A stretch of 64,000 nt of DNA from Heptranchias perlo (lineage: Eukaryota). The notes below the pieces were generated by a model. The model was not told where the DNA came from. It did no database searches and saw nothing but the letters and a program-made list of their open reading frames with translations. The position numbers and the translations under genes are program-made. Below are positions 21,480 through 61,467 of this stretch, piece after piece. Within the stretch, counting starts at the first letter, position 1, and the number at the start of each line of letters is the position of its first letter. The stretch is from assembly GCF_035084215.1 (NCBI RefSeq), contig NC_090340.1, positions 11,656,001 to 11,720,000 on the forward strand. The letters are read 5' to 3'.

Positions 21480-21860
21480 AGTTACAATGAATCTACAGCA
21501 CAGAAACAGACCATTCGGCCCAATTGGTCTATGCCGGCGTTTATACTCCATGCAAGCCTCCCCCCTCCCTACTTCATCTACCCCTATCAGCGTATCCTTC
21601 TATTCCTTTCTCCCTCATGTGCTTATCTAGCTTCCCCTTAAATCCATCAACTACTTGCCTCAACTACTCCTTGTGGTAGCACGCTCCACATTGTAACCAC
21701 TCTTTGGGTAAAGACATTTCTCCTGAATTCCCTTTTGGATTTATTACTGGCTATCTTATATTGATTACCTCTAGTTTTGGACTCCACCACAAGTGGAAAC
21801 ATTTTCTCTACGTCTACCCTATCGAACCCTTTATCTTAAAGACCTCTATCAGGTCACCCT
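21480..21860 (-). mobile_element. CR1 3' fragment
   Basis: Reverse complement resembles 22717-22984 joined to 26154-26315. Confidence 0.78.
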
Positions 21861-22314
21861 CAGGATGGGCCGAATGGTTTTTTCAACTGTAATTATCTTG
21901 TGATTTTACAGACAAAAGAGTTCTGGCTGGATTTGAGCCTAGGCCCCAGAGGTGAAATCCCTTGCCAGGCCCATGATTAATCAACTATTTTAGTCATAAT
22001 TTGGATTGCATACTTGTGTCAATTGTCTGGTGTTACATTCTAGAATCAAGCCCTGTGGGAAAACACCAAATACATTTCATGGGGAATGCGGAATACCCTA
22101 TCCAGAAGTTAAAATAAACTGCAATAGAATGTCACATCATTCAGACACTGTGAATGTCTTCACGAAACATCTCCCTGCACTGTAAAATTTAGGAGGTCTA
22201 CAACATTGGAGGGAGTTGAGCAATAAATAGGAAAGCACCTTGGCGTGCAGGTTCTAAATGTTCTTTAAGCTGCCCCCTGACCTGCCCAAGGGCTTAATTG
22301 ATAATATAAATAAA

Positions 22315-22716: not shown

Positions 22717-22984
22717 ACAAGGCTCTTTTCTTCAGAAAAGAGAAGACTGAGTGGTGACCTGATAGAGATCTTTAAGATTAAGAAAGGGTTTGATAGGGTG
22801 GACGTAAAGAAGATGTTTCCATTTGCGGGGGAGACTAGAACTAGGGGCCATAAATATAAGATAGTCACTAATAAATCCAATAGGGAATTCAGGAGAAACT
22901 TCTTTACCCAGAGAGTGGTTAGAATGTGGAACTCGCTACCACAAGGAGTAGCTGAGGTGAATAGCAGAGATACATTTAAGGGGA
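22717..22984 (+). mobile_element. CR1 LINE 3' fragment (left part of the PLE target)
   Basis: LFSSEKRRLSGDLIEIFKI...RRNFFTQRVVRMWNSLP. Confidence 0.9.
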
Positions 22985-23081
22985 TGGTAGCCATGATGTG
23001 GAGATGCCGGTGATGGACTGGGGTTGACAATTGTAAACAATTTTACAACACCAAGTTATAGTCCAGCAATTTTATTTTAAA

Positions 23082-23120
23082 TTCACAAGCTTTCGGAGGC
23101 TTCCTCCTTCCTCAGGTGAA
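23082..23120 (-). ncRNA. Minimal type I hammerhead ribozyme (left arm)
   Basis: Exact reverse complement of 26065-26103. Confidence 0.85.
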
Positions 23121-23354
23121 CGATGTCGAAATGAAATCCTCGAAATGAAATCGCATTTATAATTCACAGAACAATGCTTGGTGATTACAGACAGTTTTTT
23201 CAACTGCCCGTTGCCAAGGCAATCAGTGTGCAGACAGACAGGTGTTACCTGCAAGTTCTCAGAACATACAAATCACCAAAAAAAAACAACAAACAAAAAA
23301 AAAACAGAGATAGAGAGGTAGAAACATAGAAAAGACAGCAACTGACCTGTTATA

Positions 23355-24504
23355 TTAAAAACAGATAACATTTGTTCGCTGGTGGGGTAACGTGTAGCGT
23401 GACATGAACCCAAGATCCCGGTTGAGGCCGTCCTCATGGGTGCGGAACTTGGCTATCAATTTCTGCTCGACGATTTTGCGTTGTCGTGTGTCTCGAAGGC
23501 CGCCTTGGAGTACGCTTACCCGAAGGTCGGTGGATGAATGTCCATGACTGCTGAAGTGTTCCCCGACTGGGAGGGAACCCTCCTGTTTGGTGATTGTTGC
23601 GCGATGTCCGTTCATCCGTTGTCGCAGCGTCTGCATGGTCTCGCCAATGTACCATGCTCTGGGGCATCCTTTCCTGCAACGTATGAGGTAGACAAAGTTG
23701 GCCGAGTCACAGGAGTATGAACCATGCACCTGGTGGGTGGTGTCCTCTCGTGTGATGGTGGTATCTGTGTCGATGATCTGGCATGTCTTGCAGAGGTTAC
23801 CGTGGCAGGGTTGTGTGGTGTCGTGGACGCTGTTCTCTTGAAAGCTAGGTAATTTGCTGCGAACGATGGTCTGTTTGAGGTTGGGTGGCTGTTTAAAGGC
23901 GAGTAGTGGAGGTGTGGGGATGGCCATAGCGAGGTGTTCGTCGTCATTGATGACATGTTGAAGGCTGCGGAGAACATGGCGTAGTTTCTCCGCTCCGGGG
24001 AAGTACTGGACGACAAAGGGTACTCTGTTGGTTGCGTCCCGTGTTAGTCTCCTGAGGAGGTCTATGCGATTTTTTGCTGTGGCCCGTCGGAACTGTCGAT
24101 CGATGAGTCGAGCGTCATATCCCGTTCTTACTAGGGCGTCTTTCAGCGTCTGTAGGTGTCCATCGTGTTCCTCCTCGTCTGAGCAGACCCTGTGTATTCG
24201 CAGGGCCTGTCCATAGGGGATGGCCTCTTTGACGTGGTTCGGGTGGAAGCTGGAAAAGTGGAGCATCGTGAGGTTGTCTGTGGGCTTGCGGTAGAGTGAG
24301 GTGCTGAGGTGCCCGTCTTTGATGGAGATTCGTGTGTCCAAGAAAGAAACCGATTCTGAGGAGTAGTCCATGGTGAGCTTGATGGTGGGATGGAACTTGT
24401 TGATGTTGTCGTGTAGTCTCTTTAGTGATTCGTTGCCGTGGGTCCATAGAAAGAAAATGTCGTCGATGTATCTGGTGTATAGTGTTGGTTGGAGGTCTTG
24501 TGCA
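23355..24504 (-). pseudogene. PLE ORF remnant, left arm: C-terminal half of RT, Cys/His linker and GIY-YIG endonuclease
   Basis: Translation contains RYIDDIF (RT catalytic motif), FLD, LYRKPT, HFSSFHPNH, CHGNLCKTC and FVYLIRC...WYIGET...LRQRMNGH. The N-terminal ~26 aa of the called ORF are just the antisense of the spacer. Confidence 0.93.
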
Positions 24505-24659
24505 TCGACCAAGCTTCCCCTGGTACCACGGTTGCAACCACAGGGAAGTCTATCGTCAATTTGTCCTACCACACCCTTCAACCAGACGAAATCGAAGTTC
24601 TCAGCCGAGGGCTCAATTTCTGCCCCACTACCAAAATGGACCCCACTAGTCCCGCCGCG
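24505..24659 (+). pseudogene. Spacer between the arms: N-terminal fragment of a PLE ORF
   Basis: Translates to ...KSIVNLSYHTLQPDEIEVLSRGLNFCPTTK, the NLS...L.RGL.F.P motif typical of PLE N-termini. Joined out of frame to the RT at ~24660. Confidence 0.8.
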
Positions 24660-25831
24660 AGTTCGAGCAGGACTTCTTCACTGCACAGGACCTCCAACCA
24701 ACGCTATACACCAGATATATCGACGACATTTTCTTTCTATGGACCCACGGCGAGGAATCACTAAAGAGACTACACGATAACATCAACAAGTTCCATCCCA
24801 CCATCAAGCTCACCATGGACTACTCCTCAGAATCAGTTTCTTTCTTGGACACACGAATCTCCATCAAAGGCGGGCACCTCAGCACCTCACTCTACCACAA
24901 GCCCACGGACAACCTCACGATGCTCCACTTTTCCAGCTTCCACCCTAACCACGTCAAAGAGGCCATCCCCTATGGACAGGCCCTGCGAATACACAGGGTC
25001 TGCTCAGACGAGGAGGAACGCGATGGACACCTACAGACGCTGAAAGACGCCCTAGTAAGAACGGGATATGACGCTCGACTCATCGATCGACAGTTCCGAC
25101 GGGCCACAGCAAAAAATCGCATAGACCTCCTCAGGAGACTAACACGGGACGCAACCAACAGAGTACCCTTTGTCGTCCAGTACTTCCCCGGAGCGGAGAA
25201 ACTACGCCATGTTCTCCGCAGCCTTCAACATGTCATCAATGACGACGAACACCTCGCTATGGCCATCCCCACACCTCCACTACTCGCCTTTAAACAGCCA
25301 CCCAACCTCAAACAGACCATCGTTCGCAGCAAATTACCTAGCTTTCAAGAGAACAGCGTCCACGACACCACACAACCCTGCCACGGTAACCTCTGCAAGA
25401 CATGCCAGATCATCGACACAGATACCACCATCACACGAGAGGACACCACCCACCAGGTGCATGGTTCATACTCCTGTGACTCGGCCAACGTTGTCTACCT
25501 CATACGTTGCAGGAAACAATGCCCCAGAGCATGGTACATTGGCGAGACCATGCAGACGCTGCGACAACGGATGAACGGACACCGCGCAACAATCGCCAAT
25601 CAGGAGGGTTCCCTCCCAGTCGGGGAACACTTCAGCAGTCATGGACATTCATCCACCGACCTTCGGGTAAGCGTACTCCAAGGCGGCCTTCGAGACACAC
25701 GACAACGCAAAATCGTCGAGCAGAAATTGATAGCCAAGTTCCGCACCCATGAGGACGGCCTCAACCGGGATCTTGGGTTCATGTCACGCTACACGTTACC
25801 CCACCAGCGAACAAATGTTATCTGTTTTTAA
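24660..25831 (+). pseudogene. PLE ORF remnant, right arm: C-terminal half of RT and GIY-YIG endonuclease
   Basis: FEQDFF...RYIDDIF upstream of the called ATG, then VVYLIRC...WYIGET. Nearly identical to the left arm and 5'-truncated. Confidence 0.93.
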
Positions 25832-26064
25832 TATAACGGGTCAGTTGCTGTCTTTTCTATGTTTCTACCTCTCTATCTCTGTTTTTTTTTTGTTTGTTGT
25901 TTTTTTTGGTGATTTGTATATTCTGAGAACTTGCAGGTAACACCTGTCTGTCTGCACACTGATTGCCTTGGCAACGGGCAGTTGAAAAAACTGTCTGTAA
26001 TCACCAAGCATTGTTCTGTGAATTATAAATGCGATTTCATTTCGAGGATTTCATTTCGACATCG

Positions 26065-26103
26065 TTCACCTGAGGAAGGAGGAAGCCTCCGAAAGCTTGT
26101 GAA
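26065..26103 (+). ncRNA. Minimal type I hammerhead ribozyme in the PLE terminal repeat (right arm)
   Basis: TTCAC-CTGAGGA-A-GGAGG-AAG-CCTCC-GAAA-GC-TT-GTGAA: stem I TTCAC/GTGAA, CUGANGA core, stem II, GAAA, palindromic AAGCTT in place of stem III. Confidence 0.85.
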
Positions 26104-26153
26104 TTTAAAATAAAATTGCTGGACTATAACTTGGTGTTGTAAAATTGTTTACA

Positions 26154-26315
26154 ACATTTAAGGGGAATCTAGATAAACACATGAAATAGAAAGGAATAGA
26201 AGAATATGCTGATGTGGTTAGATGAAGTAGAGTGGGAAGAGGCTCGTTTGAAGTGGAAACACCAGCATAGACCAGTTGGGCTGAATGACCTGTTTCCCTG
26301 CTGTAAATTCTATGT
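26154..26315 (+). mobile_element. CR1 LINE 3' end (right part of the PLE target)
   Basis: Continues FKGNLDK and the CR1 3' UTR; co-linear with the uninterrupted relative at 47675-48105. Confidence 0.85.
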
Positions 26316-26863
26316 AGGGCAGGTAGGGGCTAGGTTGAGTTACCCTTCACAGTGAAAGAACCTGACGACATTCACCGTCCAGGCTCACACATAGAGAACG
26401 GTACCAGAGGGCTACTGGGGCCCATGAAATGTATGGTAGCAGGAACTAGTACCTTTGGGTGAGCGGAGGAGCATTACATTTTATGTATAAATCCAGCACA
26501 GGACAGATCTGATTCTTTAAATGCTGGAACTAGCACTCCAGACTAATCAGTGGATACTTCAAAGATATTTTGCACTGGCTTCTGAGTCACTTTGACAACT
26601 TACCCAGTTTGTAAGTTATGTAAATGATTACATCACTGTGCTTCCAATTAGGGTTTTTTTTGGAAGGTCATTAGTAATCAGGGTTAAAATATATTTTTCT
26701 ATTTTAAAACTCCTTTTCAATGAATACTATTTGGGATGAGATATTTACTGCAGTACAAGCAGTTCCCCCAGTGTGGTTAATGTCAGCTCGCCTGGTCCTG
26801 ACATTCATCTATCTACAGTAGCATTTCAAAGTGACCATTACACATGTCTAGTCCCAAGACTGT

Positions 26864-42985: not shown

Positions 42986-43092
42986 ATGTAAGGACTCTTA
43001 CAACACCAGGTTATAAATTTGTTGGACTATAAACTGGTGTTGTAAGATTCCTTACATTTGTCCACCCCAGTCCATCACCGGCATCTCCACAT
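42986..43092. mobile_element. Miniature PLE insertion (inverted terminal ends plus tail)
   Basis: TSD CCTTCTAACTCTA at 42973-42985 and 43093-43105. 31-bp inverted arms (42985-43015 / 43028-43058, 2 mismatches). Tail CCCCAGTCCATCACCGGCATCTCCACAT is identical to the tail of the large insertion. Confidence 0.9.
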
Positions 43093-43811
43093 CCTTCTAA
43101 CTCTATGCATCTATCGAAAGATTAATTTTGCCAGATATAATTTCACGATGTTGTGATAAACAACTTTCATAAGGAGAATGGGGAAGCTCCCTACTGCTGC
43201 AATAGATAGACACAGCACAAAGATCGGTAGGGTTCCTAGTTCATGCCCTTGTCTGTGCTGAGTTAGCTGATCTCAGCGCTGCTGGCAGTAGAGCACTTCA
43301 GCTGGTTAAGAGATGAAAAATAAAATAGCCAGAGTTTCTGTTCGCTTTCCAGTGACCCCATGTGATAAATGCCAGCTCCGTTCTGTGTATTATTATAGAG
43401 TATTTTTATATATCTTTTCAAATGTATTTTAGTTTGACCAATGCATTGGAAATTTTAAAATGGAGTCATGGTTACTTGGATTTCCTTGGTCCTGGGTTTG
43501 TGGATAGAGTGAATATACAGAACAGGCTCAATGCAGATGGGGGCTAATTGTTTGTGATTGCCATAGCAATAAAAGGGGTGCCATGCCAGTGAAAGGTTCC
43601 AGAAGCCTTTCTTTCAGGTCTGAAATAGTAAACAGCTCATCAAACAGTGAGGGGTGGGTGCATTCCTCTACCATCAGGCAGTTCAGGAAGAATTTGAGTT
43701 TCTTCAAAGGCAGTCACCTAATGTGAAAGGCCTCCTTTGAATAAGCAGACTGGAAAGTGTAGTTTACTGCTTCTTAAGTTCATTCAGCTGAACCACACTT
43801 CCACATGATGG

Positions 43812-44048
43812 CACTGAGGTAGAACTCCACAGAACTGAGCTGGAACTCCATGGGCCTGAGCTGGAGATCCATGGACCTGAGCTGGAGATCCACAAACCTC
43901 ACAAATGTCTCTATGGGCCTGAGCTGGAACTCCATGGGCCTGAGCTGGAACTCCATGGGCCTGAGCTGGAACTCCATGGGCCTGAGCTGGAACTCCATGG
44001 GCCTGAGGTAGATCTCTATGGGCCTAAGCTGGAACTCCATTGACCTGA
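43812..44048. repeat. 21-bp minisatellite, ~11 copies
   Basis: CTGAGCTGGAACTCCATGGGC units. Confidence 0.92.
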
Positions 44049-44088
44049 AACACCTACATTATATTCATTCAAGGTTCAGTTAAAAGAC

Positions 44089-47674: not shown

Positions 47675-48105
47675 TAGGACAAACTGAACAGGCTGGGGCT
47701 CTTTATTCTAGATTGAGAGGTAACCTGATAGAGGTCTTTAAAATTATAAAAGGATTTGATAGGGTAGATGTAGAGGAAATGTTTACACTCACGGAAGAGT
47801 CCAAAACTAGGGGCCTTAAATATAAGATTGTCACTAATAAATCCAATAAGGAATTCAGGAGAAACTTCTTTACTCAGAGAGTGGTTAGAATGTGGAACTT
47901 GCTACCACGTGGAGTAGTTGAGGAGAATAGCGTAGATGCATTTAAGGGGAAGCTAGATAAGTACACAAGGGAGAAAAAGGAATAGAAGGGATATGTTGAT
48001 GGGATGAAATGAAGTAAGGTGGGAGGAGGTTCGTGTGGAGCATAAACGCCAACATAGACCTGTTAGGTCAAATGGCCTGTTTCTGTGCTGTAAATTTGAT
48101 GTAAC
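47675..48105 (+). mobile_element. CR1 3' fragment
   Basis: RGNLIEVFKII...RRNFFTQRVVRMWN...FKGKLDK. Confidence 0.88.
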
Positions 48106-57925: not shown

Positions 57926-59629
57926 ATTGTGGACTGCTAGTGTGGGGGCATCACAATTGAACCCAATCCTTTACTCACTCAACTTCTGTATGGGCAATTT
58001 TGAGCGGGGGGAGGGTTGGAGTCACTAAATATTGGTTAGGAGCAGGGGTCCTGGCTGACTTTTTCCCCTCTCCAACTTGGTGACACTGATGCCAAATGTA
58101 TTGTGCTAGCCACCGCCTATCTAAAGTCAAATGACCAGGGAGATGGAGCCAGAGAAATCCCAGGTCTGTTCGGTTTAGTATCACGTCACAGGGTAGATTT
58201 ACAGAGTACACCAAGGGGGTGGCTTAAGCTGTCCTGTGTGGTTATCAGAGAATAATATGGCTGTGCAGCATTTCCATTGTGATGCCACTTGCAAGTGATG
58301 GATTGGCACACTTGTCACCCCAATATATGTTCTGCTCTGAGCTGCATCACTCAGTCACACTGCTTAGCTATACAGGCAACAAAGAACAAACACACACTTC
58401 TTCAAAGATGACAAAAGCAGATCCAGAGTAGCGGCAGGATGGTTGTGAGGTTTAAAGGTCACTTTACTCTAAAGCAAGTACTCGAACAGCAATCTCCCAC
58501 AGGATGCCGAGTGCTGGGTGAATTAGTCGAAAGGTGAATTCATCAAAAAGGCAATTAATGATAAGAGCACTTTTTTGCTTTTGAAAAAGCTTTTAATATT
58601 TTGAGCATTGCATGTCTCAATGTTCTACCTGTGTCAATCAGTGATCCCCCGCGTCAATCAATCAGCGATCCCTGTAACCCTCTACAAGCCCGGTGCAGGG
58701 CCGAACAAATGGGTTGGCATCTCAGCCTGGCTGTGGCCGAGTCAGAATGCCGGCCCCCAGTGCAAGCGGCATCAATGGCAACCAATGCAACTGCCTCCTC
58801 ACAGTACTGGCTACTCCGGTTAAAGGGTCACCTCTGACAGCATGTTTGGCTTTGGAGGAAACCCCATGAAGTAGGGCACTCTCATGTCTCTGCAGGTAAT
58901 CAGCTTACCCGGCTGCCACGCCTGGCATCTGGAGAAAAGCCAATATTCCTGCAGGATACAGGAATTCCGGAACACCGAGCATTCTGTTGTCCGTGCTGGC
59001 GTGTATGGACTAAGTTTAGTGTAAAATATCATTACAACCAAACTGATGTGTGACAGACAGACAGACAAAGCCAACAACCACAGCAAGGGCACAGGAGATG
59101 TCAGCATTAAAGAAACAGCCGCACTCACAAGACAGTCCAGAATGTCACCCGAGCATAACGCAACGCCATCAACGCTCTCAAGACCAACCGCAACATCGTC
59201 ATCAAACCAGCGGACAAAGGAGGAGCCATCATCATACAGAACAGAACGGACTATTGCAAAGAAGCATAGCGACAACTGGACAACCAGGAACACTACAGAT
59301 GGTTACCCGCAGATCCGACCAAAGAACACACCCACCAGCTCAATAAACTGATCAAGACCTTCGATCCAGACCTTCAAAGCATCCGACGCGCTCTCATCCC
59401 ACGTACTCCCTGCGTGGGAGACTTCTACTGCCTCCCAAACATACACAAAGCCAACACACCCGGACGTCCTATCGTATCAGGCAACGGAACCCTGTGTGAG
59501 AACCTCTCTGGATAAGTCAAGGGCATCCTGAAACCCATCGTACAGGGAACCCCCAGCTTCTGTCACGACACTACAGACTTCCTATTCAGCACCCACGGAC
59601 TAGTTGAACCAGGAACACTTCTCACCACG

Positions 59630-60979
59630 ATGGACGTCTCGGCACTTTACACCAGTATCCCCCACGATGACGGCATCGCTGCAACAGCCTCAGTACTCAA
59701 CACCAACAACAGCCAATCTCCAGACGCCATCATCCTGGATCACAATGTCTTCACCTTCGACAACCTGTTCTTTACCCAAACACACGGAACAGCCATGGGG
59801 ACCAAATTCGCACCCCAATACACCAACATTTTCATGCACAAGTTCGAGCAGGACTTCTTCACTGCACAGGACCTCCAACCAACGCTATACACCAGATACA
59901 TCGACGACATTTTCTTCCTATGGACCCACGGCGAAGAATCACTGAAGAGACTACACGATAACATCAACAAGTTCCATCCCACCATCAAACTCACCATGGA
60001 CTACTCCTCAGAATCGGTTTCATTCTTGGACACACGAATCTCCATCAAAGATGGGCACCTCAGCACCTCACTCTACCACAAGCCCACGGACAACCTCACG
60101 ATGCTCCACTTTTCCAGCTTCCACCCTAACCACGTCAAAGAGGCCATCCCCTATGGACAGGCCCTGCGAATACACAGGGTCTGCTCAGACGAGGAGGAAC
60201 GCGATGGACACCTACAGACGCTGAAAGACGCCCTCGTAAGAACGGGATATGATGCTCGACTCGTCGATCGACAGTTCCGACGGGCCACAGCGAAAAATTG
60301 CATAGACCTCCTCAGAAGACAAACACGGGACACAACCAACAGAGTATCCTTCGTCGTCCAGTACTTCCCCGGAGCGGAGAAATTACGCCATGTTCTTCGC
60401 AGCCTTCAACATGTCATCGATGACGACGAACACCTCGCTAAGGCCATCCCCACACCTCCACTACTCGCCTTCAAACAGCCACCCAACCTCAAACAGACCA
60501 TCGTTCGCAGCAAATTACCCAGCTCTCAGGAGAACAGCGTCCACGACACCACACAACCCTGCCACGGCAACCTCTGCAAGACATGCCAGATCATCGACAC
60601 AGATACCACCATCACACGAGAGGACACCACCCACCAGGTACATGGTTCATACTCCTGTGACTCGGCCAACGTTGTCTACCTCATACGTTGCAGGAAAGGA
60701 TGCCCCGGAGCATGGTACATTGGCGAGACCATGCAGACACTGCGACAACGGATGAACGGACACCGCACAACAATCGCCAGACAGGAGGGTTCCCTCCCAG
60801 TCGGGGAACACTTCAGCAGTCAAGGACATTCAGCCTCCGATCTTCGGGTAAGCGTACTCCAAGGCGGCCTTCGACACACACGACAACGCAAAATCGTTGA
60901 GCAGAAATTGATAGCCAACTTCCGCACCCATGAGGACGGCCTCAACCGGGATCTTGGGTTCATGTCACGCTACACGTAA
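59630..60979 (+). pseudogene. PLE RT plus GIY-YIG ORF (449 aa open part of a disrupted ORF)
   Basis: MDVSALYTSIP, QTHGTAMGTKFAP, RYIDDIF, CHGNLCKTC, VVYLIRC...YIGET. The upstream part (59116-59630) carries stops and frameshifts. Confidence 0.92.
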
Positions 60980-61221
60980 CCCCACCAGCAGGAAAAAAAA
61001 GTTATCGGTTTTTAATACAACTGGACATTCTCTCTCTCTCTCTCTCTGCCTTTCGGGTCTCTTTCTCTCTTTGTCTGTGTAATCTGACCCATTGTGTATT
61101 CAGTATACTGGGATGTACTGTTTTCCGTGGCTAACCTGTCTGAACACCAACGACACCTTTGATTGGTGTGATCGTGTCCCAGCCTAATAGAAGATATGCG
61201 ATTTGAGAAACCTTCACTCAC

Positions 61222-61258
61222 TCACCTGACGAAGGAGATAATCTCCGAAAGCTTGTGA
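61222..61258 (+). ncRNA. Minimal type I hammerhead ribozyme of the third PLE
   Basis: TCAC-CTGACGA-A-GGAGA-TAA-TCTCC-GAAA-GC-TT-GTGA. Confidence 0.85.
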
Positions 61259-61467
61259 TTTTCAAATAAAACTGTTGGATTATAACCTGGTGTTGTATGA
61301 TTCCAAACAAAAAGGTGGCATTCTCTGTCACCCCAACTGCACGACTCTTCTGCTGTATTGTGTTCACATATGCAAAAAAATGCCAGCTAGACATTAGCCA
61401 ATTTCACAAGGGTATATCCAAGTTCCCTGGCAATGCTGTCACTCCAACTGCATTGAGGCCTTGCATC

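Follow-up and report, generated by a model that had tools for sequence, protein, structure and literature searches.

An inverted repeat in the 3.25 Gb genome of Heptranchias perlo is a real, ordinary and dead insertion of a Penelope-like element (PLE), of a known kind and with one arm that is chimeric at the sequence level. The reading preferred here, with a probability of roughly 0.6, is that both nicked strands of one target site primed cDNA at two start sites and that the right arm was patched from the DNA of a neighbouring copy at or soon after insertion. The locus is one among thousands and of little weight in itself; the counts obtained for its family weigh more. It lies in a window of 64,000 nucleotides (C18:11,656,001–11,720,000), the whole stretch of DNA analysed, to which positions refer unless a contig or locus is named; reference coordinates are those of a full-length copy of the element (L006).

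Architecture of the insertion

Alignment within the window pairs 23031–24504 (minus strand) with 24682–26154 (plus strand) at 98.6% identity over 1,474 columns, with 20 mismatches and one gap, so that the inverted repeat with arms of about 1.47 kb described in an earlier sequence-only reading is real. The insert is bracketed by a 13 bp target-site duplication (TSD), ACATTTAAGGGGA, at 22972–22984 and 26154–26166 (both plus strand), of which the window holds no further copy. Removal of the insert in silico leaves the host repeat, presumably a CR1 LINE, continuous with two paralogues of the same window. The left part of the host 3′ region (22744–22984, plus strand) aligns to the paralogues at 47710 and 21863 (minus strand), and the alignment resumes past the insert in the right part (26167–26316, plus strand). 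The claim of a single TSD splitting the host is thus upheld, as is that of one insertion event, which agrees with the single TSD, the contiguous host and the recurrence of the same layout across the PLE family. An inverted paralogue of the host LINE end is located at 21483–21863, about 900 bp upstream (81–85% identity), and an older inverted pair surrounds the left flank.

The right arm ends at 26153 with ...TGTTTACA and has no tail. Only the left arm carries one, of 47 nt (22985–23031, minus strand), or of the 46 nt reported previously if the A common to the TSD is left out. The left arm proper (23032–24504, minus strand) is 5′-truncated at reference position 1523 and retains YIDD, the thumb, the Cys linker, GIY-YIG and the 3′ UTR.

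A separation of 177 bp between the arms had also been claimed, but positions 24502–24659 (plus strand) correspond to reference 364–521, an N-terminal piece of the PLE ORF that is 97.5% identical to full-length copies, and the untailed right arm follows from 24660 to 26153 (plus strand, reference 1501–2994). Judged by this match, the supposed spacer belongs to the right copy, which consequently starts at 24502 and overlaps the left copy by 3 bp at the head-to-head junction (24502–24504). The right copy has lost 979 bp internally (junction at 24644–24664, plus strand), with a frameshift, and the DKG, DVSALYT and GTAMG motifs are gone with the deletion. Two substitutions at this junction (24650–24662) can also be read as a 10 nt micro-inversion of adjoining sequence, typical of repair-type template switching. 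Neither arm is able to encode an RT, and the copy is dead since most RT motifs are missing from both arms. A Pfam search of the truncated arms gave no match, and no function is indicated for the locus.

Identity of the element

Among the EN+ PLEs, the linker motif assigns the element to the Neptune/Nematis type. The full-length copy has an open frame of 889 amino acids with a match to RVT_1 (E = 2.8e-10) and a CX4CxxC linker between RT and EN (CHGNLCKTC at residue 740). A CX2-5CxxC motif in this position is described as the mark of Neptune/Nematis, Penelope and Poseidon being without the linker (PMC8557442). Membership of the Penelope/Poseidon clade was rejected because the linker is present. 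A C-terminal GIY-YIG-type motif (VYLI..C..C..YIG) is recognizable by eye and PF01541 is present in many homologues; a Pfam search of the PLE protein itself returned no GIY-YIG match. A sequence search of the PDB produced a single match (E = 0.97) and a tblastn search of phages none.

Among named protein records, the nearest relatives are those of sharks: Heptranchias perlo (94%), Scyliorhinus torazame (85%) and Mustelus asterias (80%), with turtles at about 43–45%. The shark proteins are of one family with the protein of the element and have PF00078, PF28514 and PF26215 assigned to them; the records say only 'uncharacterized' and contain no insertion anatomy. A record named as an epn2 isoform includes a piece 96% identical to the PLE protein, probably through annotation read-in or exonisation.

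The PLE unit measures 3,068 bp and occurs in tandem, pLTR-forming, at four of the loci inspected (L038, L039, L064 and L079). The tail consists of the beginning of the following unit, namely its 5′ UTR and first codons; at the present locus it matches the link between tandem units in L038 and L039. A minimal hammerhead-like motif is predicted in the right arm (26065–26103, plus strand), with CUGAGGA and GAAA cores and stems I and II (z = −1.5), and is identical in the left arm (23082–23120, minus strand); it has no Rfam match at E ≤ 5. Hammerheads of PLEs are of the minimal type (PMC6155905). The predicted RNA fold of the element end with its tail is not significant (z = −1.4).

Other repeats in the window include a third, more diverged copy of the family at 59116–61297 (94%, reference 752–2684), which differs in its 3′ UTR and has a hammerhead-like end of its own, a short element end with a tail at 43013–43093 (89%) and a tandem array of a 21 bp repeat at 43787–44080.

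Head-to-head pairs and the one-tail rule

A head-to-head pair within one TSD is the standard layout of this PLE family in the genome. The 35 nt end motif has 44,062 exact genome matches, and among the first 100 matches listed 48 fall in 24 head-to-head pairs, together with one tail-to-tail pair. Extrapolation gives about 10,600 head-to-head pairs genome-wide (about 10,000 in round terms) from a sample confined to the first 5.7 Mb of a single contig and possibly atypical.

Family TSDs, ends and tails were tabulated on sampled loci, as the sequence-only reading had suggested. A position-ordered sample of 60 regions, which covers 99 of the 100 matches, contains 113 ends with a bimodal distribution: 55 extend by 0–8 nt, 53 by 34–48 nt and five are read-through. 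Head-to-head pairs, 36 in number, account for 72 of these ends, and exactly one end is tailed in 36 of 36; in one of them the untailed end is reached by way of a tandem unit. Of the 36 pairs, 35 have a TSD of 11–15 bp, mostly 12–13 bp, and L084 has none. With three pairs being satellite duplicates of one insertion, the independent insertions number 33, for which the one-tail outcome has p ∼ 1e-10 under independent choice of ends. In a second set, selected for longer arms, the rule holds in 18 of 19 resolvable loci, with three further loci unresolved; the exception (L152) is tailed at both ends and lacks a TSD. Single-arm copies with TSDs, both tailed and untailed, occur as well.

Central overlaps of 1–6 bp are present at 31 of 62 junctions. 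Exclusion of eight complex and two unresolved rows from these 62 leaves 52 simple pairs. By hand count, the untailed arm extends beyond its partner on the 5′ side by more than 20 nt in 17 of them and the tailed arm in 11, with the arms level in 24; on these counts the notion of an untailed arm that is invariably the longer was discarded. In 17 of the 52 simple pairs each arm holds sequence absent from its partner, and these include pairs with no ORF difference (L016, L026, L037, L145 and L154). The relationship between partners was scored for pairs whose arms overlap by 200 bp or more of ORF, L149 and short pairs being outside the set. In all 33 pairs other than the present one, the partner is among the top three relatives of at least one arm or ties with its best relative, which is what copying of one template would give, though arm-to-arm conversion could have added to this similarity.

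The 5′ ends of short arms (L044–L102) cluster immediately 5′ of the hammerhead-like motif, at reference 2892–2911, and a few are found at 2942–2947, immediately 3′ of the expected hammerhead cut site; the two positions possibly represent an RNA start and the self-cleavage site. Mini-insertions amplified within a satellite, several with the same flank, are seen in L068–L073 (C1 3.93–4.02 Mb), and L076 (C1 4.435–4.442 Mb) is a palindrome with arms of 3,060 bp and five mismatches.

A chimeric right arm

The deletion junction of the right copy has two matches in 3.25 Gb, obtained with two different search patterns: one at the locus and one 164 kb away, a proximity with a chance of about 1e-4. The neighbour (L031, C18:11,844,565) is a head-to-head insertion with its own 13 bp TSD, other truncation points and unrelated flanks. 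Segmental duplication of both loci was rejected, as the flanks have in common only old repeats at 69–78%, and so was a widespread deleted subfamily, as the junction occurs only twice genome-wide. No third deleted copy was found in C18 11.606–11.878 Mb or, by the junction search, genome-wide. At the head-to-head junction of the neighbour (L031 6265–6279) there is a 15 nt duplicate of adjoining sequence.

The near-identity of the arms noted in the sequence-only reading stands as an overall figure (98.6%) but not as an even one. In the inner part (reference 1523–1900) the arms differ at 12 of 378 positions and beyond it at eight of 1,094 (Fisher p = 0.001, with the boundary at 1900 picked post hoc after inspection of the data). 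The corresponding values for the right arm against the right arm of the neighbour are 2/378 and 20/1,087. The inner right arm is closest to the neighbour (three differences, against five for the next and a median of seven, of 86), and the outer part is closest to other copies. The arms at the locus rank each other 55th and 64th of 85, which makes this the only one of 34 insertions with arms that are not near relatives. They have no rare variant in common that would point to a single RNA at this locus. A rare allele at reference 1711 is carried by four of 92 segments, namely both arms of the neighbour, the right arm at the locus and one other.

These comparisons mark the right arm as a chimera, its inner part from the lineage of the neighbour and its outer part from that of the left arm. 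The left arm of the neighbour covers part of the deleted interval, and the nearest relative of the neighbour right arm is its own left arm, which fixes the direction of transfer as from the neighbour to the locus. The donor is identified by sequence as the neighbour right arm, in its present or an earlier form, and the tract assigned to it runs from 24660 to 25110 (plus strand), with the switch placed between 24870 (reference 1711) and 25111 (reference 1952). Since the divergence of the tract from the neighbour (2/378) is close to that of the outer arms (8/1,094), the transfer would date from roughly the same time as the insertion. An additional 12 bp deletion in the neighbour is absent from the locus and must be either a later event or the sign of a lost third donor. 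The piece at reference 364–513 has one variable site and is compatible with both a single switch and a conversion patch.

The overall divergence of the arms is 1.36%, with related insertions at 0.96–1.25% and older ones at 2.3–4.2%; its status as an outlier was abandoned after matched controls. Three linked alleles were likewise dropped as a private marker, being carried by 22 copies. The chimeric arm represents a datable transfer of sequence between copies 164 kb apart and warns that arm-to-arm divergence can misdate an insertion.

Mechanism of insertion

In the preferred reading, the GIY-YIG endonuclease would make a staggered cut of 13 nt and both 3′ ends would prime RT on a tandem transcript, the upstream start giving the untailed arm and a start about 40–47 nt downstream the tailed arm. 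Two nicks 13 nt apart, both extended on the 3′ region of the RNA, would necessarily yield outward-facing arms within one TSD, with the two cDNA ends probably joined through the 3 bp microhomology. A PLE protein has been reported to cleave and extend both strands, with two start sites that bound the tail and a predicted dimerization (PMC11167929). In the same paper the strands did not differ in start site in vitro, a point against the reading. The proposal of the sequence-only reading, that the two target strands primed at different positions, describes the most likely mechanism, given the family-level evidence and this in vitro work. At the sequence level, the inner right arm and its 979 bp deletion trace to the older neighbour at a distance of 164 kb, namely to its right arm. 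The tract was probably copied from the DNA of that neighbour, either because the growing cDNA left its RNA and invaded the homologue or by ectopic conversion soon afterwards. DNA repair prefers homologues close by. A DNA donor is favoured for this reason and because L1 cDNA is reported to use such homologues (bioRxiv 10.1101/2024.08.27.596794).

An alternative that we consider unlikely is fold-back or self-priming, in which primed cDNA or an antisense template copies itself, a nuclease trims one tail and central deletions make the arms unequal. This has been put forward for head-to-head PLEs (PMC3846280), and the tail has been attributed to endonuclease resolution (PMC8557442); fold-back likewise predicts shared haplotypes and one tail, and the 24 simple pairs with arm starts within 20 nt of each other are in its favour. 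However, the 17 simple pairs with private sequence in each arm argue that neither arm was copied from the other, and the tail boundaries are both placed at RT start sites in PMC11167929. Fold-back is weakened by these points and no further, since later central deletions could mimic the arm asymmetry and could yield it without twin priming. Less likely again is a switch of the right arm between two RNAs during RT, in which the second RNA was just being transcribed from the neighbour or from a deleted local copy since lost. A single switch point would be enough, the tract and outer-arm divergences agree with a transfer at about the age of the insertion, and a lost donor would account for the extra 12 bp deletion of the neighbour; yet no third deleted copy is found in the ranges searched, and the neighbour would otherwise have to be transcribed.

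An artefact of assembly or polishing, with reads of the two loci mixed or a palindrome created, would be conceivable in that each locus is a long palindrome and the two share a contig, but it is very improbable: the shared tract is not identical (2/378 substitutions, one more upstream and the 12 bp indel), the TSDs are intact at both loci and the layout recurs across the family with matching TSDs. When contigs of four runs from one sample were searched with the right half of the insert, about 10,000 family contigs in each swamped the signal, and no listed piece bridges either junction or shows an empty site, an outcome that speaks neither for nor against the structure. A chance meeting of two separate insertions at the same site is hardly credible and is largely refuted by the one TSD that brackets both arms with none at the centre, and by a tail arrangement and 3 bp overlap that fit the family pattern, even if, taken over their full length, each arm has other copies as near to it as its partner.

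A transcript through both arms would fold back on itself, as the sequence-only reading had supposed, and the predicted structure of the central 1,391 nt is a near-perfect hairpin (−1337 kcal/mol); for PLEs of rotifers, small RNAs are reported in PMC3846280. The further proposal that the locus is a dsRNA source that silences the PLE family, a functional addition and not an alternative origin, is nevertheless strongly doubted. About 10,000 other head-to-head copies offer comparable hairpins, so that the locus is not special, and nothing specific to it supports the idea: a search for host exons gave no Pfam match among the 148 longest non-repeat frames (of 189; short exons would escape), and no promoter was identified.

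Returning to the preferred reading, a stronger form of it can be proposed tentatively, with chances a little below even: coupled twin priming would be the default mode of PLE integration, an RNA-bound dimer obligately giving each nicked strand one start site, and at the present locus the cDNA would have been finished on the neighbour 164 kb away. If true, this would explain the head-to-head layout, the one-tail rule and the 12–13 bp TSD together. The near-strict one-tail rule and the shared haplotypes provide a clear prediction for the existing in vitro PLE system, which makes the insertion mechanism testable.

Comparison with known systems

A truncated copy in inverted orientation, a one-ended tail and a TSD around the unit have already been described as typical of EN+ PLEs (PMC8557442, PMC3846280 and PMC2377424), and the origin of the tandem and inverted structures is called undefined in PMC8557442. 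In the text of these three papers available to us, which includes Pen2a_Av (PMC3846280), the elements resemble the present one in the inverted 5′-truncated copy at the 5′ end, the enclosure of the unit in one TSD, the 30–40 bp tail that is often one-ended, the tandem units and the internal deletions. The H. perlo family differs in that it is very large, with a nearly strict one-tail rule and a narrow range of TSD lengths (mostly 12–13 bp), counts of this sort being absent from those portions; the copy at the locus has a chimeric arm in addition. Neither twin priming of PLEs nor a counted one-tail rule was found in the text of the open-access papers searched, and the available parts of PMC5105311, PMC9977147 and bioRxiv 10.64898/2026.07.22.740005 contain nothing on head-to-head PLE structure.

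The Poseidon element PAc of Anolis (PMC11167929) is similar in its pair of internal RT start sites delimiting the tail, its extension of both strands, its hammerhead in the pLTR (a putative one here) and a tail that extends into the ORF's beginning. It belongs to the Poseidon clade, whereas the PLE protein considered here has the CX4CxxC linker, and in the part of that paper available to us the two-strand extension is not tied to head-to-head copies.

Twin priming and templated or chimeric insertion of L1 offer a close parallel to the two steps proposed here: both nicks prime on one RNA, microcomplementarity joins the cDNAs, and a growing cDNA may switch from RNA to nearby homologous DNA (bioRxiv 10.1101/2024.08.27.596794). 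In L1 the second primer is internal, which gives a 5′ inversion, a single 3′ end and a poly(A), whereas the present insertion has the element 3′ end on both arms and no poly(A); an L1-type twin-primed 5′ inversion was rejected on these grounds. The templates described for L1 in the same preprint are also shorter than 250 bp and lie within 15 bp, in contrast to the ∼0.4–0.6 kb from 164 kb away at this locus.
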